DNA of 64,000 nucleotides from positions 896,001 through 960,000 of the forward strand of contig CM000431.1 in assembly GCA_000165345.1 (NCBI GenBank). The letters are read 5' to 3'. The notes beneath the pieces were generated by a model. That model made no database searches. It worked only from the letters and a program-made list of their open reading frames with translations, and had not been told where the DNA came from. Below are positions 1,679 to 52,691 of this stretch, piece after piece (position 1 is the stretch's first letter; every line of letters starts with the position of its first letter). The translations under genes were made by a program, and so were the position numbers.

Positions 1679-2785
1679 CTACTTTTTAATAATTTGAACA
1701 ACGTCTTCATCAATTAAAACATGGTCTTTTCCTACTCTTTGGGGATTATGTCTAACAGACTGACCCCAAACTAGAGCATATTTCATCTGAGGGAGTAATT
1801 GTTTATGTATTCTCCTACAAAAATCTGCTATAGTAGACTTATCACGTTTTAAAATAACTGGAGCAGCATAATCAGGAATCTGACCTTTAGGCTTAGTATA
1901 AATCCTAATAAGATCTAAATACTGCCATATTTTCTCAATAAGACCATCAAGATTCCATTCATGATGAGCAGATACTGGAACATAATGTGGACATTGTGAA
2001 AGAACATCCAATTCTTCAATAGTAATTTGATCAATCTTATTTAGAATATAAATACAAGGTAAATATATACGATTACCTTCAATAATATCAATAATATCAT
2101 CAGCAGTTGCATCACAACGGATAACAAAGTTAGCATTATTGATTCTATACTCTGAACAGATTGATTTAATAGTCTCCTCGTCAATATTTTTAAGTTGTAC
2201 AGTAGAAGTAATTGTAATTCCACCTCTGTCTTTTCTAGTAAATGATATATTTGGTGGTTGCTTATTTAACCTAATTCCAAAACCTTCCAATTCTCTCTCA
2301 ATAATTCTTTTATGTGTTAAAGGTTTTAAAGCATCTAAAACAATGAGAATTAAACTACATGTTCTACCTACACCAATAACTTGACGACCTCTACCTTTAC
2401 CATCCTTGGCTCCTTCAATAATTCCGGGTAAATCTAAGAGCTGAATTTTAGCACCTTTGTAATTAAATACACCAGGAACACATGTAAGAGTAGTAAATTC
2501 ATAAGCTGCTACTTCACTAAAAGTACCAGTTAATTTATTTAATAGGGTTGATTTACCTACAGAAGGAAAGCCAATAAGTCCTACTCTTGCTTCTCCTGTC
2601 TTGCTGACATCCCAACCTTCATTCCCTCCGCCACCTCCTCCTCTTCCATCGCCACCACTAATTACCTGTGCTCTTAGTTTTGCTAATTTTGCCTTTAATA
2701 AACCCAAATGAAAATTGGTTGCCTTATTTTTTTGAGTTCTGGCCATTTCGGCCTCTATCTCGGCAATCTTCTGAAGTAAACTCAT
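1679..2785 (-). CDS. DRG: developmentally regulated GTP-binding protein (DRG/Rbg1 family, Obg-like GTPase with C-terminal TGS region)
   Basis: N-terminus [36 protein letters not shown] is the canonical DRG start. G1 [10 protein letters not shown]3 DLPG, and a Gly-rich insertion are present. Full length. Confidence 0.9.
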
Positions 2786-3358
2786 TTCAAATTCCTAAAG
2801 AACCACTCCAGAAATTCTTCTGATTATTTTTATCTTTTTTCCCCTTAATTTTACTCCTATTGAATTTATTTGTCTAATTGTCAATTATAAACCGGAACTT
2901 TTGGCGCCACAAATTTTTGAAATAATATTTTTGCTAAATATAATTTTTAATAGGTAATAAAAAGAGGGGCAAGGGAAAGGGTGTAATATTTTATTTATTA
3001 AGTGGGAAAATTATAGGCAAATTTAATATTAAGATTTGACAGATTAATATAAATAAAATATATTTTAGGATATATTTTGAAATATTAAGGTGTTAACTAA
3101 ACGTTGAAATGTTGAAATCTAATGCAAAATAGGAGAAAAGAACGACTATTATTTGTATAATGATTGAAATCATAAGAATCCCAGAAATTGAGTTCTATTA
3201 GATTTTTAAATAAGTTAAGATTTTTTTTTCTTAATAATACAAGATAGAAAAATTGAATATATATTGAATTGTATTTTTAACATTTTCCACCCTGTAGTAG
3301 TAATTATAACTTACGCTTAATTTAGAATGAAGATTTAATGCTTTAGCTTGGCATAATT

Positions 3359-3705
3359 CTAAAAATAAATTTTATTTATTATGAAGAATGCCATATTAAT
3401 TTTAAGTAAAATTCCATAAATCTTTGACTTACCATAAGTTAGCTCTTTAATTATTCTTTCAGATTTCTTCTTAACATATCCATTTTGACTGTTTAAATTA
3501 AAATCAGAATTAATTTTAATTTCGTCCATTTGTAGCCATGAAACTGGTGATAATAATGAAATAATACTTTCTGGATGATTATATTCGCTTAAATCTTCGT
3601 TCATTATCTTGAAAAATAATTAATTATTCATTTATTCTCTTTATTTTTAAAATTCATTAATTCAATTCTACTTACTTTTTCCACGTTATTTTCTTCGCTT
3701 GTCAT
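3359..3705 (-). CDS. candidate small multi-exon gene. Exon 1 is 3676..3705 (MTSEENNVEK). A GTAAGT intron spans 3608..3675. Exon 2 runs 3433..3607. A possible second GTAAGT intron spans 3350..3432, with a short third exon below 3349.
   Basis: ATG then 10 codons, then GTAAGTAG donor and tttttcAAG acceptor in frame with the ORF-track ORF 3359..3604. A second GTAAGT follows ..ELTYG. The product is not recognised. Confidence 0.3.
3608..3675 (-). other. intron (GTAAGT donor, AAG acceptor) of the candidate small gene
   Basis: Donor read as plus-strand ctacttac 3668-3675. Acceptor read as plus ct 3608-3609. Confidence 0.3.
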
Positions 3706-4047: not shown

Positions 4048-5925
4048 TTAAATTTTCTCATAAATGTACAAGTAAGACCAAAAAACTAAGCCAATGGGTG
4101 TTTCAAGAAAAAATGAATCAAAAACTCTGCGAATAAGTTTATAATTATGTTTATGGAGCCATTCTTGCAGATTTTCATTAAAGTATGAATTAATTACAAA
4201 GAATTTTGGTAATTCCCCAGAAAGTTTTCTATTAAATCTGTAATTCAAACAATTGTCAAAATTTGAAGTATTTAACTTAGTAATATTTGATGAAATATAT
4301 GGACTGGGGTAAGATGTATTCAACAAGGGATTAATAACAAAAATCTCCTCCAATAACTGTGTAGTATTTGGATGTGTCCAAAGTATTTCATTCATATTCT
4401 TATGTTTGATTGATTGATTAATATTAGGAGAACAATCAAAGAATCCAAATTTCACGTCTTGGTTTAAGAAAGAGTAGGCTGGATACATATGGCATTGAGA
4501 AACAAAGAAAATGGATCCATTCTTCTGCAAATTCAAATTGGACAAATATCTAATCGCAGATTCACCACCTCTTTGAAATATTGTTGTAAAGAAAAAAGCT
4601 GGAATAATTTGAGCTAGTAATGTTACTAGAAGGTACTTATTATTGAGATATATTCGAAAAATGCTAATACTACTAAATAATAACCCCATACAGTTATTAT
4701 TATCCATTTTGAAGAGCTTATGTATTTCTAAAATGAGTTTATATATTCCAAGGCTCGTGGTAATTAACAATATGGGAAAATAAGGGATAATAAAACGATG
4801 TTCTTTATGTGATGTAGTAGAAAGCAAGATCATAGTAATTAAAGTAGAAATTTGTGATATTTTAAATATTTGATTTTTTAAATTAAATGATTCGATGATT
4901 CCAAGAATCATAAATGGTAGATAAGAAAGTAAAGTAACAATTGGCATTTCAGTAAAGTAATAAAGTCTGGAATTTGAACCATATATTTGTCCTGGATCTC
5001 CCATCAAATTAAATTTAACAAAGTTAATCATTGGAATTGTAAATTTTTTGTAGAACAAATAATCCAAATAAAACATTACTGGTATTGTGATGAAAACAAC
5101 AACTATGCAAATTTTTAACAATTTCATGATTGTAAAAATTGAATATTTACTACCTTTATTAATAATATCTTTAATTTGAAAAATAATCAAAGTTAAGTAT
5201 AATATTAGCCAAAATTGAACAGATGAATGCCTAACTAAAACACTTAATGAAGAAAGAAATATTCCAATTATAAGAGATTGATTATCTGAGTAACTACCAT
5301 TAATCAATTCTTCTGATTTAATGATAAAATATATACTCCAGATATTAATACAATTTTCAACAGTTTGGGCATAAGTTCTACATAAAGTATAGAAATTATA
5401 CCAACTAAATAATGAAATAAATAATGCCACAAAATCTAATTTATATTTATTACATATTTTCTGGTAAAATGAAATTTTGAAGAAGATAGAATCTTTCAAA
5501 TTACTTTTGGATTTATTATCACTATCTTCAATTTTAGTTTCCATTCGAGCATAATAATTTTTGTGAAATATTGAATAAGCAACTTTACTTGTACCAATAT
5601 CTGTTAATATAGCAAATATAGACTGATAAAGCCTTGGAATAATGAAATAATAATTTGTATGATATAAACATTGGTAATTATTCTTACAGAAAAATTTTAC
5701 AATCTTTTTAAAGAAATTTATGATAATATAACATATAGTAAAAATTAGTGGATGAATAATACTTCTTAAAGATACACATGGTTCCCATTCCCATGTAAGG
5801 TACCCAAACTTATTCACAATTTTGTGTGCAACCTCTAAAGATTGCCAATACTCATCTGGATTATAAGTTGTGCGGATAAATAATGAATTTAGGATTCTAA
5901 AAACAATAATAATTATATAGACCAT
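4048..5925 (-). CDS. GT22-family Dol-P-Man dependent alpha-mannosyltransferase, most likely a GPI mannosyltransferase (PIG-B/GPI10-like or SMP3-like)
   Basis: N-terminal PDEYWQSLEVAH...GYLTWEW signature of GT22 (ALG9/ALG12/PIG-B/PIG-Z). HKEHRF motif. Multiple TM helices. 625 aa. Confidence 0.8.
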   Translation of the reverse strand: MVYIIIIVFRILNSLFIRTTYNPDEYWQSLEVAHKIVNKFGYLTWEWEPCVSLRSIIHPLIFTICYIIINFFKKIVKFFCKNNYQCLYHTNYYFIIPRLYQSIFAILTDIGTSKVAYSIFHKNYYARMETKIEDSDNKSKSNLKDSIFFKISFYQKICNKYKLDFVALFISLFSWYNFYTLCRTYAQTVENCINIWSIYFIIKSEELINGSYSDNQSLIIGIFLSSLSVLVRHSSVQFWLILYLTLIIFQIKDIINKGSKYSIFTIMKLLKICIVVVFITIPVMFYLDYLFYKKFTIPMINFVKFNLMGDPGQIYGSNSRLYYFTEMPIVTLLSYLPFMILGIIESFNLKNQIFKISQISTLITMILLSTTSHKEHRFIIPYFPILLITTSLGIYKLILEIHKLFKMDNNNCMGLLFSSISIFRIYLNNKYLLVTLLAQIIPAFFFTTIFQRGGESAIRYLSNLNLQKNGSIFFVSQCHMYPAYSFLNQDVKFGFFDCSPNINQSIKHKNMNEILWTHPNTTQLLEEIFVINPLLNTSYPSPYISSNITKLNTSNFDNCLNYRFNRKLSGELPKFFVINSYFNENLQEWLHKHNYKLIRRVFDSFFLETPIGLVFWSYLYIYEKI

Positions 5926-6327
5926 AATTAAGAATAAATTTTTTTTAACTTTGAGAAATTTTCAAAAACGAGTTTCTGGTAGTTATTTTGATTACTTACA
6001 AGATAATAAAATTCTAAAAATCAAATTAAATATTTATTAATACATAGAATCAATTACTCAAACTATTTCTTCTATTCAAAAGTTGAATTATTTTTTTTTT
6101 AAATTTCCATTACTAAAATTAATTTCTTATTTATTCACAAAAAAAAAAGTGGCGGGAAATGTCTGAACTATTAGTAATTATTTGACTTGAAGTTTTGGCA
6201 GTGGGGATATGTGGGGCGTAAATAAAATAAAAATTGACAAAAATAAAAAAAAAGACTATGTAAAATCTATTAATTGACAGAATTTAATATGGCAAAAATG
6301 ATAATTGCATTGGAAATAAATAATTAA

Positions 6328-36644: not shown

Positions 36645-39600
36645 TTGGGAATATTTAAGCTGGAAATTAACTTTTTAATAACATTTAATAAAATGAATTC
36701 TCTTGATTTACAAGTTAATGGAATGACATGTACGTCATGTGCTACTACAATAAAAAACTTATTATTACATTACAAATTTGTAAAAGATGTTGAAATAAAT
36801 ATCATTTTAAATAGTGTACGTGTAATATTGAATAAGAAAATCACACTTGATGAAAGAAAAAAGATTTGTGACACAATTAACAATGCAGGATTTATTTGTT
36901 TATTAAAGTCAAGTACAATAATGAATGACATGTTAACTTTAAGTATTGATGACCTTAAGTTAGAAGAAAGAAGTTTAGAAAGTGAAATAATTTATGGAAG
37001 TTCAAAAGATATAGCTGAACAAATTTTGAACAGTAAAGGAATAAAGTTTTTAAAATTACATCAAATACCAACAGAAGAGATGAAATTAATAGTAAAAGCA
37101 TTAGAAAATAAAGCTGGAATTATTACTATAATAAGTTATTTGAAGTGGGGACAATTATGCATTTTATTTGATGAAAATCAGATTACTATAACGCAGATAC
37201 AAGAAATTCTAGAGAAATCTGATATTTGGATGCTAAGTTATATGAAATTCTATTGTTTATTTGGTAAGGAAAAGCTTTCATGTGTAAACAATCTTAAAAT
37301 TAAATGTATTTTCCGTTTAAATTCTGATAGAGAAGGTATTAGCATAATACAAAAGATATATAATTGTTTAAGACGAAGAAATGCAAATATTGAGTTCAAT
37401 AAAGATTTTACAGCAAGTATTGGTTGTATTGTAAGTGGAATCTTTGGGATTTACAATGTATCCGTTGAAAGAATGAATGAAAATAATTTGGAGAGAAATC
37501 TTGTTCTAATGATTTGCATTGATTATAATCCTTACTTTATTTCTGGGAGGAATCTATTAAAATATATGAATGATGAAGTTTTAAAAAACTACGTTAATGA
37601 ACCAATTCTAGATGAACAAATTAATGAAAATAAATTGAGAAAGCAATACTCACATAGGTTAGTGAATTCAATGCAAATTATTACAAAGTGTAATTTGGAT
37701 GAAAGTGTTAATTACTCAAGCCTGCAAAAAATTAAAGATAAGGAGTCTCGATATTATGTTATTTGTTTTACAATTTCTTTAATTTTAACTATTATGGTAC
37801 TATTATATAATTTCTTGGGTGATAAACCCTTTATGTCCAAGTTTACAAGAATTATCTCTTTTAATACAATCAAATCTTTGCAAGATCAAACAGGATTATC
37901 TGGTATTAGTTGGAAATATTTGATAAATTTAATATTAGTCACAGTAGTGGTATATTTATGTGGATATACATTTCATAAGAAAGGAATCAAAAGTATGCTA
38001 TATTTGAATCCAAATATGTATAGCTTAATTTCACTTGGAACAAATACATGCTATTTGTATTCACTTTATATGATGATTTATATAGCAATAATATCTTCAA
38101 AAGGTCCTGAAAATACAAAAATATATTCAGATAAGTTACCCAATTTTTTTGATATTGCTTGTATGCTTATCACAATAAGCTTATTTGGAAGAATTTTGGA
38201 TGTACATTCAAATCTACTGATATTAAGAATTATTAATAATAATAGTAATAAAAATGAAGTTGGTGAAAATGGAGATTCCATGAGGTATAATATAAAAGAT
38301 AATTTTCAATTACTTGGTGAAACTAAATTTGAATCACTTGAAAAAGTTTATTATCATTTTTCAAACTCTGAGAATTGTCAGGTATTACCTTTAGCATCTC
38401 CAAAAGATTTAAAGAAAAATAAGGAATTCCGATCAAAATATAAAAATACAGAAATTGGACAAAAAATGAATACTATGAGCATAGACTCAATTTGTTTGGA
38501 TGATATTTCACCTCAATCTATGGAAATGAAGGAACAGAGCTCAATTATTAATAATATAGTAAATGTTGATTTAATAGATTTGGGGGATGTTATTATTTTA
38601 AAAAAGGATGAAATTGTACCATATGATGGAATTGTTATTTCTAATGATATCGCAGTTTTGGATGAATCAATGATTACTGGTGAAAGCAGAATCATTGAAA
38701 AATTATATGGAAATTTTATATCCAGTGGAAGTAGAGTATTATCTGATAATGTATTCATATTTGTTACTGAAGTAGGAACTGAAAGTACTCTTGGAAAGAT
38801 TCAAAAGTTAAAAATAAAAGCAAGAGAGAGTCAAATAGAGTTACCTGGAATTATTGATATATTTTCCAGATATTTTGTACCTTCAATCATATTATTATCT
38901 TTATTGGCTTTTGTTGTTTGGTTCTTATTAGCTTATTATGACAAAGTGGATCCAGCTAGAATGTTTAATATTGACAGAATAAACTTTAATACAGAATTTG
39001 ATAATATATTTAAAGAATTTCCAATTTCATCCAGAGTTATGTTTGCACTGCATTTCTCACTTTCAATATTGGCAATATCTTGCCCATGTGTTATTGGTAT
39101 TACAGTTCCTATTGCTGTACTTATTTCAACTTCTTTAACTTCAAAAAAGAATATATTGGTACAAAACACAAATATTTTCAATAATATAGGATTTATTGAT
39201 AATATAGTTTTTGATAAAACTGGTACTTTGACAAATGGAAGACCAACTGTCAAATCTATTATTATTGATCATGAACATATTCAAGAAATAATAAGTACTA
39301 CATTTAATAATGGTTACAGTTCAAAATGGGAAAAGTCGACTGATATAGATTTTTCTAATTCTTCTATTGAAACATTTTATATTAATAAGAATTCTAATAT
39401 TCAAGAAAAAAATATTGTTTTTGAAGAATTATTCGAATCTTATTTAAAGTTTTGGTGGATTATTGGATCTTGTGAATATTATAATAATCATCCAGCTGGA
39501 AATGTATTAAGATCTTTCTCAATTCGTCTATTTAATAATAAAGAACAATATAAGTTTACTCAACCTATTGATTGTAAATATATTCCAGGAGTAGGAATGA

Positions 39601-40043
39601 CTTGTATTATTAATAGCATGAAAGTTTTAATTACAAATCAATATAAGCATCTTGATCAAGATTTCAGTTTAGTTTCAGTCAATTCTAAAGATTATAATCA
39701 TTATCTAAAGAGTCCATCTAATACTTTAGAAATTTCTTTAGATAGTCCTGAAAATAAGAGTACAGAATATTCATCATTATATTTGCAGAATTGGCTTAAA
39801 TATTGGTCTAAAAAAGGATCAATGATTATTTACATTTTTATTGGTGATATAAATAACTTCAGTGATAATGAACATGGATTAATTAATGCCAAAAATATGA
39901 AATTAGTTGGTGCAGTTTCTATGATTGATGAACCAATGTTTGGAGTAGAGTCTACAATTAATTATATGAAAAAATATGTAACAGATCAAATATGGTTGTG
40001 CTCTGGTGATTCTTTTTATACATCAAATTCAATTGCGTCAATG
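36645..40043 (+). CDS. Cu(+)-transporting P1B-type ATPase, exon 1. The start is probably the ATG at 36693 (MNSLDLQVNG..).
   Basis: HMA motif GMTCTSCA. TGES (MITGESR). CPC (SCPCVIGITVP). DKTGTLT. Exon ends ..SIASM|, followed by GTAAGT at 40044. Confidence 0.9.
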
Positions 40044-40105
40044 GTAAGTTTATTAAAAGAAAAATTCAATAATTTTTGAATAACTTAATATATTTTTAAT
40101 TAAAG

Positions 40106-42991: not shown

Positions 42992-44125
42992 TAAAAAATT
43001 CAAAAATTTTTCGAGTAAAATTTCATTTAGTAAATATAAACAAAGGAAGACATTAATTTTTTTCTTTTTTTTTAATACATGTCTATTATCTCTGCAATAA
43101 CGGTATTTCATAAATTGTTTATCCACATGAGTGCATGCATGAAAATTTGCATCCACATGACGTAGTGCATGATTGAATTAATTATTATAATGTAAGTTAG
43201 TAACGGTGATAAGTTAAATTGAGATTTGGACATAAAAAAAAGGAAATAAAGGTAAATTTGATGCTGAAAGAATGGGATAAGAAATTTGGGAGGAATACAA
43301 ATTTAGGTATTATGCAAGCGTGATACAAATAGAAAAGAGTCTTGAAGAAAAGCTTGCATACATGACTATTTCGTGGTAATTCAAGTTCTTTCAATAATAC
43401 AATTTATTCTTGAGAATACATATGAACAGTTAAGTTTTAAAATGGAATATTTAAATTTTCGACTTAAATATTCAGCAAAAAAAAATTAACAAAACGACAA
43501 GAAAACAATTTAATCTTATTTTCTATGCAATAAATCAACATTCACTAAAGTGTTGGGAAAGTTAAAAATAATCTGGAGAAGAAAATATTGTGAGGGTTAA
43601 TGGGGGGTTACGACGTTGTTAGAGTGGGATAGCAGAAAATGAATATTGAGAAGTAATACGATCATTTCCTTTCAATATAATGTCACAGATAACACAGTAA
43701 AAATATATTTAAATTAATTTCTGGCACTAATATTTAATACGCAATAAATATAACTAAGAGGGGAATTCAAGTAATTTTTTATGAGGGTATCGGTGAGACG
43801 GGTACGCAAGTATTGTCTCAACAATTACCCCCATTTAAAATAAAGTTAATAATCAAATTAAATAAATAGATAAGAATAATTAAATAGATAGTAGAATAGT
43901 AAAGACCGGAAATGCATAGACGTAAAAGTAAATATAGTTATATAATGCCAAATAAATGGTGAGATATTTAATAGATAAGTCAAGGGGGGGAAGTTTAAAT
44001 TAAAATTGAATAAAATAGGGGCAGGTGAGAGAAGAGATAAAATCATTCTATCAAAAAAAGGGTAATTTTCATTTTTTAAGAAAACTTGAAGATTTTTTAT
44101 TTCTATAAAACAAATAACCATCAAA

Positions 44126-46225
44126 ATGGTAGAGACTTTTGCATTCAATGCTGATATTCAGCAGCTGATGAGCTTGATCATCAATACTTTTTACAGCAAT
44201 AAGGAAATCTTTTTGAGAGAATTGATTTCTAATGCCTCCGATGCTTTAGACAAGATCAGATATGAATCCTTGACTGATCCAGAACAATTAAAGAGTAATG
44301 AGGAAATGCATATTAGAATTATTCCAGATAAAGTTAATAATACTTTAACTATTGAAGATTCTGGTATTGGTATGACTAAGAATGAGCTTATTAACAATTT
44401 AGGTACTATTGCTCGTTCAGGTACAAAGGCATTCATGGAAGCAATCCAAGCTGGTGGTGATGTTAGTATGATTGGTCAATTTGGTGTTGGTTTCTATTCT
44501 GCTTATCTTGTTGCTGATAAAGTTACTGTAATTACCAAACATAATGGTGATGAACAATACATTTGGGAATCATCAGCTGGTGGTTCATTCACTATTACTA
44601 ACGATACATCAGACAATAAGTTACAAAGAGGTACTAGAATCATCTTACACCTTAAGGAAGATCAATTAGATTATCTTGAGGAGCGTACCTTGAGAGATTT
44701 AGTAAAGAAGCACTCAGAATTTATCTCCTTCCCAATTGAACTTTCTGTTGAGAAGACTACAGAAAAAGAAATCACCGATTCTGATGTCGATGAGGAGGAA
44801 GAGAAGAAGGAGGGTGAAGATGGTGAAGATGCACCAAAAATTGAAGAAGTTAAAGAGAAGGAACCAAAGAAGAAGAAGATTACAGAAGTAACTCAATCGT
44901 GGGACTTACTTAACAAGAATAAACCAATCTGGATGAGAAAACCAGAAGAAGTTACTTTTGAAGAGTACTCTTCTTTCTATAAATCAATCTCAAATGATTG
45001 GGAAGATCCTCTCGCAGTTAAACATTTCTCAGTTGAGGGTCAATTAGAATTTAAGGCAATTCTCTTTATTCCAAGAAGAGCTCCATTTGATCTCTTTGAA
45101 ACCAGAAAGAAGAGAAACAACATTAAGCTTTATGTACGTAGAGTATTCATCATGGATGACTGTGAAGAATTGATCCCAGAATTCTTAGGATTTGTTAGAG
45201 GTGTTGTTGATAGTGAAGATCTTCCATTAAACATTTCAAGAGAATCATTACAACAGAATAAGATCCTTAAGGTCATCAAGAAGAACATTGTTAAGAAATG
45301 TTTGGAATTGATCACTGAAATTACTGAAAAGCCTGATGATTACAAGAAATTCTATGAACAGTTCAGTAAGAATCTTAAGTTAGGTATTCATGAAGATACT
45401 ACCAACAGAAATAAGATCAGTGAGCTCCTAAGATATCAAACATCAAAGAGTGGTGAGGAACTCATAAGCTTAAGAGAATATGTTGATAGAATGAAGGAAA
45501 ATCAAAAGGAAATTTACTACATTACTGGTGAATCTATTCAAGCAGTACAAAACTCACCATTCCTTGAGAAGCTTAGAAAGTTAGATTATGAGGTAATTTA
45601 CATGGTTGACCCAATTGACGAATACTGTGTACAACAAATGAAGGAATTCGATGGCAAGAAGTTGAGATGCTGTACTAAGGAAGGTCTTACTTTAGAGGAA
45701 ACTGCTGAGGAGAAGGAAGCCTTTGAAGCTCTCCAGAAGGAATATGAGCCTTTATGCCAGTTAATTAAAGAGGTTCTTCATGATAAGGTTGATAAGGTTA
45801 TCACATCTCAGCGTATTTCTGACTCACCATGTGTACTCGTTACATCTGAATTTGGATGGTCTGCAAATATGGAACGTATCATGAAGGCTCAAGCTCTTAG
45901 AGATACAAGTATGACATCTTATATGATGTCCAAGAAGACTATGGAAATTAATCCATATAACTCTATCATTACTGAGCTCAAGACCAAGATTGCCAATGAC
46001 AAGTCTGATAAGACCGTCAAAGACTTGATTTGGTTACTCTATGATACTTCCCTCCTTACTTCTGGTTTCTCATTAGAAGATCCAACTCAATTCTCATCCA
46101 GAATCAACAGAATGATCAAGCTCGGTCTTTCTATTGATGAGGAAGATATTGTTGATGATCTCCCACCTCTTGAACCAGTTAATGATGCAGAGCTCCAAGC
46201 ATCTAAGATGGAAGAGGTTGACTAA
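44126..46225 (+). CDS. HSP90: cytosolic heat shock protein 90
   Basis: [22 protein letters not shown]. GxxGxG ATP lid. Charged linker. C-terminal MEEVD. 699 aa. Confidence 0.97.
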
Positions 46226-46689: not shown

Positions 46690-49116
46690 TTATACAGGAA
46701 TATGTATATCTAATCTTCCAGCTCTAGTAATACTTTCATCTAGCTCAAGGATATGTTTGTTTGAAAATGCAATCACAATAACGTTTTGATTCTTCTTTTC
46801 AACATTATCTAAACAAAGAAGAAGAGTAGTGAGTAGAGTTCTGGAGTCATTGGAATTTTTTGAAGAAAATTGATCATCATTTTGGTTGTTTTCCAAGAAT
46901 ATATTAGACTGAATTAAGTTTTGTGAAGTCCAATTCAAATTAAACATATTTTTAATTTTTTCTTTATGTGAATTAATTCTAAAAGAAATATCATTAAATA
47001 AATTTGGTGAATAATTAATGAAATTTTGGTTTAATTTGGACTCTTTGGAATCATTTGTTAAGCTTAAATCCATATTTTCTTGAAAAGAGAAAGTATCTGT
47101 TTTATTATTTTGAATTATAAAATTATTTGAAATTACATCAATTCCTTCTAGAATAAGTATTGTAGGAATATTTGTATTGAATAGTTGCCTAATATTTTCT
47201 TCAGACTGTCCAACATAAGGACTTAATAAAGTAAGTATATGTTTTTGTACAAGCTTGTAATTAATATATTGTTTTTGGATATATTTAATTAATTCTTGCT
47301 TTACAATAGAAAGTTTACTTCCATTTAAGTTATTTCTACTATTATATATAAGTATTCTTGGAGTAAATTGTTGATTCATTATTTGGTTTATTTTACTATA
47401 TTCATTCTCAAACAATTTGTAAATTATTAATTGATCATTAACTTGTTGTAATATTGATTTAATACTCTCATCTTTAAAACTAAAATCTCCAGTATTTAAA
47501 GTATTAATCTTCCCATCAAATTTTTCCACAGCTCTATTCTTAAATAATAGCATTTCTTTCTCTTGCAAATAATTATTATATAATGTATTATCAATTACTA
47601 AATTTCTAAATAATATTTCCACTACTTTATAAATTAATTTTTTATCTGAAACTCCAAAACATACTCTAATTATCCAATTCACCATATTAATTCCTGTTAA
47701 ATCATCTCCATTTTTTAATAAATCTTCCTTTAATTGCTCAAAACTATGTTTGTTCAAACTTTGATAATACATTAATTCCAAAAATGTGTCATAATTTTTA
47801 TCTAATAATAAAATAGATATATATTCATTCAATTCCTTTTTTAACCTCAAATATCTACAAAGTAACTCCTTTTCATCCAATTCAGTCTCATTATTAATTT
47901 GTTCTAATAGTAATAATTTAACATTTACATGCGAACACTTGGCGCCAAATGTGTGGAAATTATTTCTTGTCATTAAACATTTTAGGTGGTAAGTATTATG
48001 AAAAGAAGGTTTGGAAGAAATATTATTTTTTTTAAAGATATTAACAAGTTCTGGTTTTTGTGAGTCATTGTATTCAATAAGAATCAGTTTTTTAATGCAA
48101 GTAAATTTTGAAAAATGTTCTTCTAGTTGATCAATTAAATTGTCATTAATTGACAAATTTGAAAAAGATGTAATATAATTATACATAAATATATTAATGG
48201 AAATTATATTTTCCAAATTTGAAATATTAAATCTTGTGATTTCCTCTAAAATATCTTTAACTCTCTCAATTATGTTATTTCTAATATTTTTCAAAACTTT
48301 TATGGAAATATTATTCTCCATTACGTATTTATTCAGAATATACGTAGTATCTAAATAAAAATAACTTAAAGCAATATTATTATTATTAATAATGTTTTTA
48401 ATATTATTAATATTTTTAACCATAAAACTTTCAATTTCTAAATTTTTTGATGTATTATTATTTGTGTTAGAATTAAAGTTTAATTGATTCACATTTGGGA
48501 TAATTAATAGGTTTGAAATAAATTTCATGTAGGTATTCTGAAATTCTTCAGAAATTAGTTTATTCTCTTTAATATATTGAATTTGAAAAAAGTAGTATTT
48601 TTCATTTATTAAAAAAGGTAGGATTAAATTATTGAGTATATCTTTTAAATTATATTCTGTTGAAATAAATTTTAAGTAGTAATAGAATTGCCTTTTTAGA
48701 CCCTCCACTAATAAATTCTTATAATTTAGTAAAAATATATCTGATTGAGTAGTTAATTGTGAAAAAAGAGGTCCAGAAAACACAATATCTGATATAATTG
48801 TTCTATTTGTAATATTTAAGCAATTCTCATTTTTTATATATTTAATATATCCTTTATTAAAATGGCTAATACAACTTAGCCCAGAATGAATATACACTAT
48901 ATCTTCTTTACAAGGATTAATATCATTATTAATTTTAAAAAAAATAAGAAATTTCAAATTTTCCAAATTTAACTCGAGTAAAATAATTCTATCATTCTTA
49001 ATATCATCAAAATCATTATTAGTCAATTTATTCACTAGTTCTCTACTAATTAAAGAAATCCCATCTTTGAGGTCTTCTCTAACCTCGATATTGCATGGTA
49101 TTATATATCTTTTCAT
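46690..49116 (-). CDS. hypothetical 808-aa protein with a C-terminal degenerate AAA+ ATPase-like module lacking a Walker A P-loop
   Basis: LLSPYVGQSEENIRQLF..PTILILEGIDVI (Walker-B-like) ... VIVIAFSNKHILELDESITRAGRLDIHIPV parallels AAA yvGesE..vR.lF..iiFiDEiD .. viviaaTNrpd.lD.AllRpGRfDr.i.v. No GxxGxGKT. Confidence 0.65.
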   Translation of the reverse strand: MKRYIIPCNIEVREDLKDGISLISRELVNKLTNNDFDDIKNDRIILLELNLENLKFLIFFKINNDINPCKEDIVYIHSGLSCISHFNKGYIKYIKNENCLNITNRTIISDIVFSGPLFSQLTTQSDIFLLNYKNLLVEGLKRQFYYYLKFISTEYNLKDILNNLILPFLINEKYYFFQIQYIKENKLISEEFQNTYMKFISNLLIIPNVNQLNFNSNTNNNTSKNLEIESFMVKNINNIKNIINNNNIALSYFYLDTTYILNKYVMENNISIKVLKNIRNNIIERVKDILEEITRFNISNLENIISINIFMYNYITSFSNLSINDNLIDQLEEHFSKFTCIKKLILIEYNDSQKPELVNIFKKNNISSKPSFHNTYHLKCLMTRNNFHTFGAKCSHVNVKLLLLEQINNETELDEKELLCRYLRLKKELNEYISILLLDKNYDTFLELMYYQSLNKHSFEQLKEDLLKNGDDLTGINMVNWIIRVCFGVSDKKLIYKVVEILFRNLVIDNTLYNNYLQEKEMLLFKNRAVEKFDGKINTLNTGDFSFKDESIKSILQQVNDQLIIYKLFENEYSKINQIMNQQFTPRILIYNSRNNLNGSKLSIVKQELIKYIQKQYINYKLVQKHILTLLSPYVGQSEENIRQLFNTNIPTILILEGIDVISNNFIIQNNKTDTFSFQENMDLSLTNDSKESKLNQNFINYSPNLFNDISFRINSHKEKIKNMFNLNWTSQNLIQSNIFLENNQNDDQFSSKNSNDSRTLLTTLLLCLDNVEKKNQNVIVIAFSNKHILELDESITRAGRLDIHIPV

Positions 49117-49564
49117 TCAGTCCATCAATTTTGTTATTTTTTTCTTGATTTATTTCCATTTACATTTATAATACATTATTTTGAATGCATATTTTGTATG
49201 TAAACTTTATGTAAAATAAGATAATTTATATTCTACTTATTACGTGTAAAATATAATATATATTATACTAAGCGGCTAATTTCCTTATACAATATTTTAA
49301 TATATAAATTACAAGGAGGAAAAAAAATAGAAATAATAAGAATGAATTCGGGATAAAAAAAGAAATTATAGATAAAATCATAATCTCCAAATAACAAAAT
49401 ATAGAATCTATTATCCTTGATGTAGAATGCCTCTAACTTCTTTCAACAGGCCTTATTCAGTTTCACCTTCCTCTTAGACTATATAAGTACAGTCAAATCT
49501 ATAGAATAGACCTTAAATCATTCGAGTAAATCAATTACAAGATACTTTTCATCATTCGTATATG

Positions 49565-49613
<49 letters not shown>

Positions 49614-49711
49614 AATGATGTTAAATGGAAGGTATTCCAGATTAAAGACCGGAAATAAGCAAAAGAGGATGATGTTTTGAATTTGAGGTCGCTGATGAAG
49701 TATTAAGGATT

Positions 49712-50239
49712 TCATTGAAGAACCTTACGCTTTTGTTTCAAATTGGCTGCTCTAGCCTTACGAGCATCAAGCTGATCTTGTAATGCCTTCTCCTTAAGAT
49801 GTTCTGCCTTAGCGATGTGAATAGCTTCAATCAAGACTCTCTTATTCTTGTATTGGTTACCCTTTGATTTTAAGTAGAATTGTTTGTACATAGTCTTATT
49901 AATTTTGCCAGATTCACGATATTTACGTAAGAGACGTCTTAATACTCTTTGACGACGCATCCATAAGACCTTCTCTGGTCTTCTGGCATCCTTTGTACCT
50001 CTTCTTTTACCAAGACCCATAGAACGACCTTTTCTCTTAGCCTCATGGACTCTACTAATTCTAGCTCTTGAGTGAGTAGCAACAGCCTTCTTCAAGATCA
50101 AACCATCCTTGTATAATTTACGGATACTTTGACGAGAGTTCGCTGTTGAGATTGTGTCCATTTCAGTTGGGTCCAACCATACTCTATTTGCTCCACATTT
50201 TAAAACCTCCTTTGCTAAACGTTTTTGTAATATCAAAGG
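49712..50239 (-). CDS. RPL19: 60S ribosomal protein L19e, exon 2
   Basis: ..[21 protein letters not shown]... K/R-rich L19e body. ttattAG acceptor (minus strand) at 50241-50240. Confidence 0.9.
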
Positions 50240-50304
50240 CTAATAATTTAAATAGAAACAAGATGAGTTAATATTATCCAGAATAAAGAAAATTTAAGAT
50301 TCAG
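50240..50304 (-). other. RPL19: intron immediately after the RPL19 start codon
   Basis: GTAAGTTTATTT donor (minus strand), aaattattAG acceptor. Confidence 0.55.
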
Positions 50305-50307
50305 GTG
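50305..50307 (-). CDS. RPL19: RPL19 exon 1, consisting of the ATG start codon only
   Basis: On the minus strand, ATG at 50307-50305 is immediately followed by GTAAGT (plus 50304-50299). A 65-nt intron. Splicing gives [10 protein letters not shown].., restoring the conserved L19e N-terminus. Confidence 0.55.
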
Positions 50308-51305
50308 TGAAAATAAACTTACCATTCTTACTAGTTATTTGATTCCTTTAATCAACGTGAAATTTAACTTTGATTTTTTTTTTAAAAAAAAAGTTTCCTC
50401 CTTTTTTTCCGGTGGATGTTTTTTTTCCCTTGAAGAATATTCACCTTAATTTAAAAAAGAAACAAAATATACTTATTGTCACGTGTATATTTTACGTTGA
50501 CTTTTAATTATTATATTATATTTACTTTAGTATATAATTTATTAATTATTTATTTAAACAAAAAAAAAATAAATATTTGTCTCGTCGGTACCGCTTTAAT
50601 GCCGGTCAATATATTATTATTTTCAAGAAGAAAAAAAAATATTTTTATTTTAAATAAAAATTGTCTCAAAAATGGGCGCCAATTATAACTTATGAATTGA
50701 ATATATAAATAATAATAAATGCATGAATTAGAGGAATTTTTTTTTTGTTCTTATTTAGAATTTCAATTGATAAATACAATTTTAAAATAAAGATTTAGTG
50801 ATATGAAATGAAGATAGAAGAAGATAAAACTTTTAATTGTTGATATTAAATCTTTATTAATTTCTTTTGAGTACTATGTTTTTTTTTTTCTTAATATAAA
50901 AAAAGTTATATACAAATTTAATACTCAATTATAATTATAAGGAAAAAAGATAAGCGCACACAAAATCTTTAGTTATTAAGTATTTATTAAAACCTCAAAG
51001 TTAAATAATATTGCATTATTTGTAAATTAGTATATTTAACCTTTTAAAAGGGTCCTATTTTAAATTGTATAAATAAAATGATTTATCGATTTCTAAAAAA
51101 AAAATCTTAACTTTAATAAGTTGGTCTTGTTAAATTACATTCAATAATTCTAAATAACTTATCTGAAAAATTTTAAAACCAAATATATTATGGCTAACAC
51201 GTAATATATTTATTAATGTAAAATAAAAAGGTTTGCACTTTACCGCCAAAAGTCTAAATAAATATTAATTTAAATATAGGAATAATTTGATCATTATAAA
51301 TTAAT

Positions 51306-52691
51306 ATGGATGGAATACAGGAAAATTTTTCAAAGACTTTAGATATTGATTGTAATTCATCCATTTCATCTGTAGTTTTGACAGAATTTTATGCATTTGT
51401 TGGTTTAATAGGAGAAGAATCAAATGTAAATGTATATTGTTATAAAGATCATGAAGATAATAAAGACAAGAATTATAAACCTAAATATATATTAGAAAAT
51501 AACCATGGTGGGATTTCAAAACTTGTTTTATCTCCCTGTAAGAATTTATTGATGGGTTTAACATGTTATGGATGGATATATATTTGGAATATTGAACAAT
51601 TAGGTAATAATACAAATAATGATGTTGAAATGAGTATAGAAGAAAATAATAATAAATCCAATATTAAGAGTAATATTAATGAATTAACCGAGGAAATTCC
51701 AGTGATAAAGCCAGATATATTCTTTATGAATGGCCATCCTGGTGATTCTATTTGTGTAGAATTTATTAATTCAAAAATAATAATAGCAGCTGGAATTAAT
51801 CCAGGCTCTAGTATTACTTTTATATCAGTAAAAACTGGAAAAAGAGTTGGTCAATATATTTCTAGAAAGAATGAAATATCAGGTCTAGCATGGCCAATGT
51901 ACTATAAATTTGATGAGAAAGAAATTAAAGAACAAAATTTTGAGCTTGCAGTATTTTCTTTTACAAACATTGCCATAGAAAGGTCAAGCTCAAGTGGAGG
52001 ATGTTGGATTGCTCTCGGTGGTTCTAATGGACTTATTACTTTAATATACCTACCATTTGCAACTATTTCAAAGTTTGAAAAGTTATATGAAACCATTAAT
52101 ATTGAAAATGAGGATATTAACTTGTCAAATACAGAATTTCTATGGAAATGCCATCAAGTTAGTGAATTATCTACAGAAATTAAATCATTAATATGGAGAC
52201 CTCGTAATAATAATAATACTGGATTATGTCTTGTATACGGTACCGATGATTCATTATTACGATATTGTTTTATTGAGGCTGAAAATAAAAATATTATGAT
52301 TAAAAAAGTTAATTTAGTAAAAATAACTGATGGCACTTCAACTTGTAGTGAAATTAATTCTATTTCTTTTCCTATGGATGGACAAAATAATTCTATTTTG
52401 GCTGTAGGATTTAATAGATTTTCATCAGCAAAAAGGCATCCAATATTTGCTACTTCAGAAAATTTGACCAAGAAATCTCAGTCATTTTCTTCATTTAAAG
52501 TTTATATTCAAGATGTTATAACTTATTCAAATAATAGTAACAACGCAACATCATCTACGTATACTCATTTCTATTGTATAGGAAATCATTATGATATAAT
52601 TACAAGTGTACATATTAGCCCATGCTGTAGATATATTGCTTCGTCTTCTATTGATGGACATGTACACATATATAAAAAATCAAAGGTTTAG
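51306..52691 (+). CDS. hypothetical protein (461 aa), possible WD40/beta-propeller
   Basis: Repeated segments of the form ..GWIYIWNIEQ.. and SSIDGHVHIYK resemble WD repeats. Assignment is weak. Confidence 0.55.
   Translation: MDGIQENFSKTLDIDCNSSISSVVLTEFYAFVGLIGEESNVNVYCYKDHEDNKDKNYKPKYILENNHGGISKLVLSPCKNLLMGLTCYGWIYIWNIEQLGNNTNNDVEMSIEENNNKSNIKSNINELTEEIPVIKPDIFFMNGHPGDSICVEFINSKIIIAAGINPGSSITFISVKTGKRVGQYISRKNEISGLAWPMYYKFDEKEIKEQNFELAVFSFTNIAIERSSSSGGCWIALGGSNGLITLIYLPFATISKFEKLYETINIENEDINLSNTEFLWKCHQVSELSTEIKSLIWRPRNNNNTGLCLVYGTDDSLLRYCFIEAENKNIMIKKVNLVKITDGTSTCSEINSISFPMDGQNNSILAVGFNRFSSAKRHPIFATSENLTKKSQSFSSFKVYIQDVITYSNNSNNATSSTYTHFYCIGNHYDIITSVHISPCCRYIASSSIDGHVHIYKKSKV

Follow-up and report, generated by a model that had tools for sequence, protein, structure and literature searches.

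The eL19 locus on the minus strand of Cryptosporidium parvum chromosome 3 raises the question of where the coding sequence of this ribosomal protein begins. In the window (the whole 64-kb stretch of DNA analyzed here), the gene appears as a 174-aa open reading frame (ORF) that starts at a TTG, and the original prediction placed the true start upstream of it, in a first exon whose only coding content is the ATG. The ORF had been said to lack the conserved N-terminus, which is correct for Met1 and Pro2 but overstated otherwise: the TTG is the codon for Leu3, and nothing else of eL19 is missing.

We find that eL19 is almost certainly a two-exon, minus-strand gene in which an 83-nt intron follows the start codon and the ATG makes up the first coding exon; there is no substantive evidence against this model. 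The proposal of an ATG-only first coding exon was borne out by intronless contigs, conserved splice boundaries, purifying selection, and alignment with eL19 chains of solved structure. The results demonstrate that the junction is used, that its boundaries are conserved, and that a full-length eL19 is the product.

Structure and setting of the gene

The minus strand at the start of eL19 runs …aaataactagtaagaATG/gtaagtttattttcacacctgaatc…ctatttaaattattag/CCTTTGATATTACAAAAACGT…, where slashes mark the splice boundaries here and below. The strings on which the original prediction was built, an ATG followed by GTAAGTTTATTTTCAC and an aaattattAG abutting CCTTTGATATTACAAAAACGT, are present on that strand; the positions assigned to them required correction. 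The ATG lies at 50325..50323, 18 nt higher than had been proposed (the minus strand reads CAC at ~50305..50307), and both the start codon and the donor site fall outside the proposed gene span of 49712..50307. The distance from the A of the ATG down to the TTG, whose T is at 50236, is 89 nt rather than 65 nt. The intron occupies 50322..50240, with 50323 joined to 50239, in place of a junction interval of 50240..50304.

Exon 1 contains a 5' UTR of at least 110 nt (50326..50435, minus strand), a minimum extent set by a contig that is 100% identical to 50435..50323, and no upstream ATG occurs within it. The entire coding part of this exon is the initiator ATG (50323..50325), which is joined directly to 50239 in the same contig. 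It is the single ATG on the minus strand from 50500 to 50200, and its context is aagaATG, with an A at −3. Between codons 1 and 2 lies a phase-0, GT-AG spliceosomal intron (50240..50322, minus strand) of 83 nt and 22% G+C. Its 5' splice site, GTAAGT (50317..50322), is conserved in eight Cryptosporidium species, and its 3' splice site, TTAG (50240..50243), was read in the sequence, in the contig junction, and in the eight-species comparison. A branch-point-like motif, AATATTAACT, is found at 50266..50275; the putative branch A would be 50268, and the first base of exon 2, 50239, is 28 nt downstream.

The coding part of exon 2 (49712..50239, minus strand) comprises codons 2–176 and the TGA stop (49714..49712), as delimited by the ORF, the Pfam domains, and the match to structure chain 5xxb_Q, and it opens with CCT (Pro2), TTG (Leu3), and ATA. 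Removal of the intron restores the frame, such that the ATG and exon 2 together give 531 nt and a 176-aa product. Unspliced read-through from the ATG meets a stop after 25 codons, and a stop directly upstream of the acceptor closes the frame of exon 2. In this model, exon 1 consists of the 5' UTR ending in the initiator ATG, and a canonical U2-type intron, with its GTAAGT donor, TTAAC branch-like site, and TTAG acceptor, is excised from behind it. Splicing then fuses the first AUG of the mRNA to codons 2–176, and without splicing that AUG opens a 25-codon dead-end frame.

The 3' UTR approximately spans 49351..49711 on the minus strand. Its extent in C. parvum (~360 nt) appears by homology from the poly(A) site of C. 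tyzzeri, of which a contig aligns to 49351 and then continues into an untemplated A-run. A (TA)n microsatellite at ~49566..49612 in this UTR differs in length between C. parvum and C. tyzzeri.

The product is a cytosolic large-subunit ribosomal protein, eL19, full-length after splicing as judged by its domains and alignments, and its incorporation into the 60S subunit is predicted. The N-terminal eL19 domain (PF01280) was matched at residues 4–53 with 86.2 bits and the C-terminal domain (PF25476) at residues 56–143 with 108.2 bits, each against a cut-off of 25. The original prediction had called for comparison of the spliced protein with eL19 orthologues, and its alignment with eL19 chains of solved structure begins at residue 1: residues 1–174 are collinear with residues 1–174 of 5xxb_Q (E = 1.1e-65; chain start MSLQLQKRLA) and also align with chain 3j79_T (E = 7e-60, residues 1–174). 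We take these two chains to be the eL19 proteins of Toxoplasma and Plasmodium, respectively. The best matches in the PDB search were all ribosomal chains, none 100% identical to the query, and no C. parvum eL19 chain was found there. The protein has a K+R content of 29%, and in BLASTP it was 60–71% identical to nearly all of the 120 non-Cryptosporidium eL19 proteins among the matches listed.

The string ATGGTAAGT occurs three times on the two strands of the window, versus 0.6 ± 0.8 times in first-order Markov simulations. By an arithmetic estimate, chance would place fewer than 1e-3 occurrences in the correct orientation in the 150 nt preceding the eL19 ORF, and the ATG/GTAAGT arrangement at eL19 is more than chance.

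Elsewhere in the window, the occurrence at +40041 was rejected as a start-codon intron; the Met codon that precedes it is internal to a P-type ATPase. At this site (40041..40105, plus strand), an in-frame Met of a heavy-metal P-type ATPase ORF (36645..40076) precedes the GTAAGT of an internal phase-0 intron of 62 nt, which ends in …aattaaag and rejoins a 130-aa ORF bearing the hinge motif MMIGDGINDS. The occurrence at −3435 (3435..3427, minus strand) was likewise set aside, no start-codon intron being demonstrable. It falls within a 1.25-kb stretch without long ORFs, between a DRG-like GTPase ORF (1682..2794) and an ORF at 4051..5961. The minus strand at ~3300..3440 carries ATG/GTAAGT, a tttttag acceptor ~75 nt later, and then a brief stretch of open frame followed by another GTAAGT, and from this arrangement the region could be a small multi-exon gene.

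The neighbors of eL19 are an 808-aa AAA-type ATPase (46690..49116, minus strand) and a 461-aa WD40 protein (51306..52691, plus strand), which exactly match C. parvum Iowa II proteins EAK88974.1 and EAK88973.1, respectively. G+C content in the window ranges from 20 to 34%, in keeping with C. parvum. A local G+C peak is explained by an ORF at 44090..46222 (plus strand; G+C 0.35, GC3 0.33) that we take, from recognition of its N-terminus, to be HSP90-like. A six-frame ORF screen of the window for other ribosomal protein genes, based on length, K+R, and G+C, returned eL19 alone.

Spliced transcripts and conservation across the genus

The exact spliced eL19 protein is encoded without interruption on several short contigs. 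One of these, L014 (ENA ERZ21846244), aligns to the window at 100% identity over 50435..50323 and 50240..49617, two blocks from between which 83 nt have been removed; the G that both blocks share at their boundary places the intron at 50322..50240, with canonical GT-AG ends. This contig breaks just short of the (TA)n run in the 3' UTR. Two others, L012 and L013 (Logan SRR29943337 and SRR29943416), have the same junction and match the C. tyzzeri locus (L009) at 99.8–100% identity. L012 ends in …TATCCAAAAAAAA, versus …TATCCCGAATTC in the C. tyzzeri genome, and because its A-run is untemplated in the genome, it would represent a polyadenylated mRNA. A fourth contig, L004 (SRR26491568), shares 99% identity with C. 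xiaoi; in it, position 1483 of the C. xiaoi locus (L003) is followed directly by position 1760, and a 276-nt intron is missing from the same place between codons. The ATG is thus joined directly to CCT or CCC, TTR, and ATA in intronless contigs of three species (L014; L012 and L013; L004). These contigs lack the intron and include UTRs, and L012 ends in an untemplated A-run, which suggests that they are derived from mRNA. Exact look-up in the sequence collection of the hypothetical start-codon-spliced eL19 of C. muris, C. bovis, and C. canis found none.

We compared eL19 loci from eight species: C. parvum (three assemblies, including the window), C. tyzzeri, C. meleagridis (two assemblies), C. 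ubiquitum, C. canis, C. xiaoi, C. bovis, and C. muris. All share the pattern ATG/GTAAGT … YAG/CC(T/C/G) TTR ATW YTR CAR AAR CGT. The splice boundaries are kept, while the intron itself varies in sequence and in length (82, 83, 85, 138, 274, and 276 nt), and read-through from the ATG hits a stop codon in 8/8 species. Conservation within the intron is limited to GTAAGT, an AATAYTAACT-like block, and YAG. Every one of the eight species has a YTRAY motif (TTAAC or CTAAC) at a distance of 24–35 nt from the acceptor, and the AATAYTAACT-like block is a putative branch site.

Translation of an intronless gene from the TTG at 50236 has a negligible probability in light of these data. The call is found in the ORF list and is carried by Logan assemblies as well (P0002). 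The organism is eukaryotic, however, and a TTG start is a mechanical product of ORF calling under the bacterial code; the codon alternates between TTG and TTA from species to species. We rejected this start on the grounds that the TTG is a conserved Leu3 codon and that the spliced mRNA contigs provide an AUG two codons upstream.

An intronless gene translated from the internal ATG of Met27, to give a 149-aa eL19, is hardly credible. Met27 is the first in-frame ATG of the uninterrupted ORF, and GenBank models of C. hominis TU502, C. canis, C. bovis, and C. ryanae (XP_665419.1, KAJ1606825.1, KAH7648901.1, and KAH8739873.1) begin there. Codons 2–27 are nevertheless conserved as protein: C. parvum differs from C. 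xiaoi and from C. bovis by 11 synonymous and 0 non-synonymous changes each and from C. muris by 11 synonymous and 2 non-synonymous changes, a pattern by which these codons are under purifying selection. Because change is almost only synonymous, this stretch is coding, and a start at Met27 is therefore ruled out. The skipped residues also overlap the PF01280 match and align with residues 1–27 of the solved chains, and the spliced transcripts provide an in-frame upstream AUG. The Met27 start was rejected as already refuted in practice by this coding constraint and by the spliced transcripts, in favor of the two-exon model.

Retention, age, and possible roles of the intron

Yeast RPL30 has a start-codon intron whose splicing is autoregulated; its first coding exon ends at the AUG, and retention of the intron blocks protein synthesis. 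The first coding exon of eL19 likewise ends at the AUG, so that intron retention would abolish eL19 synthesis and leave a 25-aa peptide. We consider it very unlikely that the intron is regulatory in the same sense, with eL19 or another factor controlling its splicing. In favor of such a role, its position is kept genus-wide and recurs in deposited models of Cystoisospora and Vitrella, whereas the later intron positions of those models are empty in Cryptosporidium eL19. Unlike in RPL30, however, no conserved RNA structure was found around the 5' splice site of eL19, and there is no sign of feedback. When we looked for conserved structure as a sign of autoregulation, RNAalifold found 0 conserved pairs across the eight species from −50 to the acceptor, and the sequence is unconserved outside GTAAGT, the branch-like motif, and YAG. 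A further point against regulation is that a neutral process suffices to explain the intron, namely the tendency of introns in intron-poor genomes to survive near the 5' end (PMC8476143, PMC1626468).

Searches against Rfam, which cover described families only, gave no matches in the 64-kb window at the gathering score, and none at E ≤ 1 for a snoRNA-like element in the introns of C. muris (L001), C. xiaoi (L003), C. bovis (L005), and L008, a set that includes the longer introns of C. xiaoi and C. bovis. We attribute to chance a weak match to DdR8 in the 3' region of L008, which reached 25.5 bits where the gathering score is 80 (E = 0.68). We find no evidence of a hosted snoRNA or of an RPL30-type structured element, and a sequence-independent effect of splicing on expression is compatible with these results.

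Outside the genus, the deposited eL19 model of Cystoisospora suis (L015, 256–1422) reads ATG/GTAAGT…TCTTCAG/TCG, with an intron of 1164 nt at the same position, and that of the chromerid Vitrella brassicaformis (L017, 1501–1817) reads ATG/GTAAGC…CATCAG/TCG, with an intron of 314 nt, again at the same position. In Eimeria media (L016) the N-terminus of eL19 is contiguous and the start-codon intron is lacking. The original prediction had described the arrangement as typical of ribosomal protein genes in some apicomplexans; as far as eL19 models go, this holds for Cystoisospora suis (and for the chromerid Vitrella) but fails for Eimeria media. From these models, an intron at this position could be older than the divergence of apicomplexans and chromerids, or it could be the result of parallel gains.

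The later introns of the Cystoisospora and Vitrella eL19 models are absent from Cryptosporidium eL19, and the keeping of the start-codon intron amid their absence fits 5'-biased intron survival in intron-poor genomes (PMC8476143). Because the intron is present in every Cryptosporidium species examined and in the Cystoisospora and Vitrella models, one could also read it as ancient and selectively maintained, with splicing beside the AUG serving high expression or feedback and with AATAYTAACT as a strong, yeast-like branch site specific to such introns. This reading is unlikely. The intron has probably been retained as introns commonly are in intron-poor genomes, surviving preferentially near the 5' end of highly expressed ribosomal protein genes, and it may also benefit expression. 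So understood, eL19 is a further example of the well-described survival of the 5'-most phase-0 intron in an intron-poor genome and raises no new question.

Deposited models and known systems

That an ATG-only coding exon is easily missed by gene finders, as the original prediction anticipated, is evident from the many faulty eL19 models on deposit, although the current C. parvum annotation is correct. In at least seven Cryptosporidium assemblies eL19 is truncated, extended, misplaced, or fused because the 3-nt coding exon was missed; the deposited proteins that disagree are P0006–P0014 and P0029. The Iowa II record (XP_626926.1 / EAK89245.1) is the same ORF without its Met and is flagged "partial," and the models of TU502, C. 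canis (L006), C. bovis (L005), and C. ryanae are truncated to a start at Met27. In C. muris RN66 (L001), a spurious extension, MILPYFYNF, is gained from an ATG inside the conserved intron and a 42-nt GTTAAT…AG intron; for this species we predict instead the ATG at L001 1429–1431 and a 138-nt intron. The C. xiaoi model puts the ATG exon at position 1501 of L003, with a GC-AG intron, 20 nt too far downstream of the 1481–1483 shown by contig L004. Two models from C. hominis are fusions of eL19 with the AAA ATPase that lies downstream. The comparative rule ATG/GTAAGT … YAG/CC(N) TTR ATW would correct such models, and the main value of the present analysis is practical.

In C. parvum itself the start-codon intron of eL19 is already known: it is annotated and ordinary, and the general phenomenon has been published. 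The exact 176-aa product is deposited as QOY42731.1 (C. parvum IOWA-ATCC), as KAL5369734.1 (a further C. parvum assembly), and as POM83284.1 and KAK9173693.1 (C. meleagridis), and near-identical 176-aa records exist for C. hominis, C. ubiquitum, and chipmunk genotype I. Our model does not differ from the IOWA-ATCC annotation (QOY42731.1 on CP044420.1), which has the same product and the same 614-nt span (3 + 83 + 528). The introns of that reannotation are stated to be 100% supported by RNA-seq (Baptista et al. 2022, PMC8744675). We found no literature on the eL19 intron in Cryptosporidium specifically; the papers that bear on it are general reannotation papers and a survey of start-codon introns.

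Among the introns of its own genus, that of eL19 is typical. Cryptosporidium introns begin with GTAAGT in 84% of cases and have a mean length of ~82 nt (Irimia & Roy 2008, PMC2483917), and those of C. parvum average 84–99 nt with 22% G+C (Isaza et al. 2015, PMC4637869); the eL19 intron matches them in its GTAAGT donor, its 83 nt, and its 22% G+C. It departs from the genome-wide result for C. parvum, in which the branch point was "not clear" (PMC2483917), in having a conserved AATAYTAACT-like motif.

A close known system is the class of introns that directly follow the start codon, whose enrichment in ribosomal protein genes was described in 2002 and 2006 (Nielsen & Wernersson 2006, PMC1626468). 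In human ribosomal protein genes, the ATG exactly ends exon 1 in 20/73, and across vertebrates, arthropods, fungi, and plants such introns show an excess in proteins that are short, rich in lysine, and conserved, above all in ribosomal ones (PMC1626468). The eL19 intron shares the defining features of this class, being phase 0 and placed right after the ATG of a gene for a short, basic, conserved ribosomal protein. It differs from the scope of that survey, where Cryptosporidium is unmentioned and Plasmodium enters in the literature background only. The eL19 case thus adds Cryptosporidium to the survey of start-codon introns and, by deposited models, Cystoisospora and Vitrella as well.
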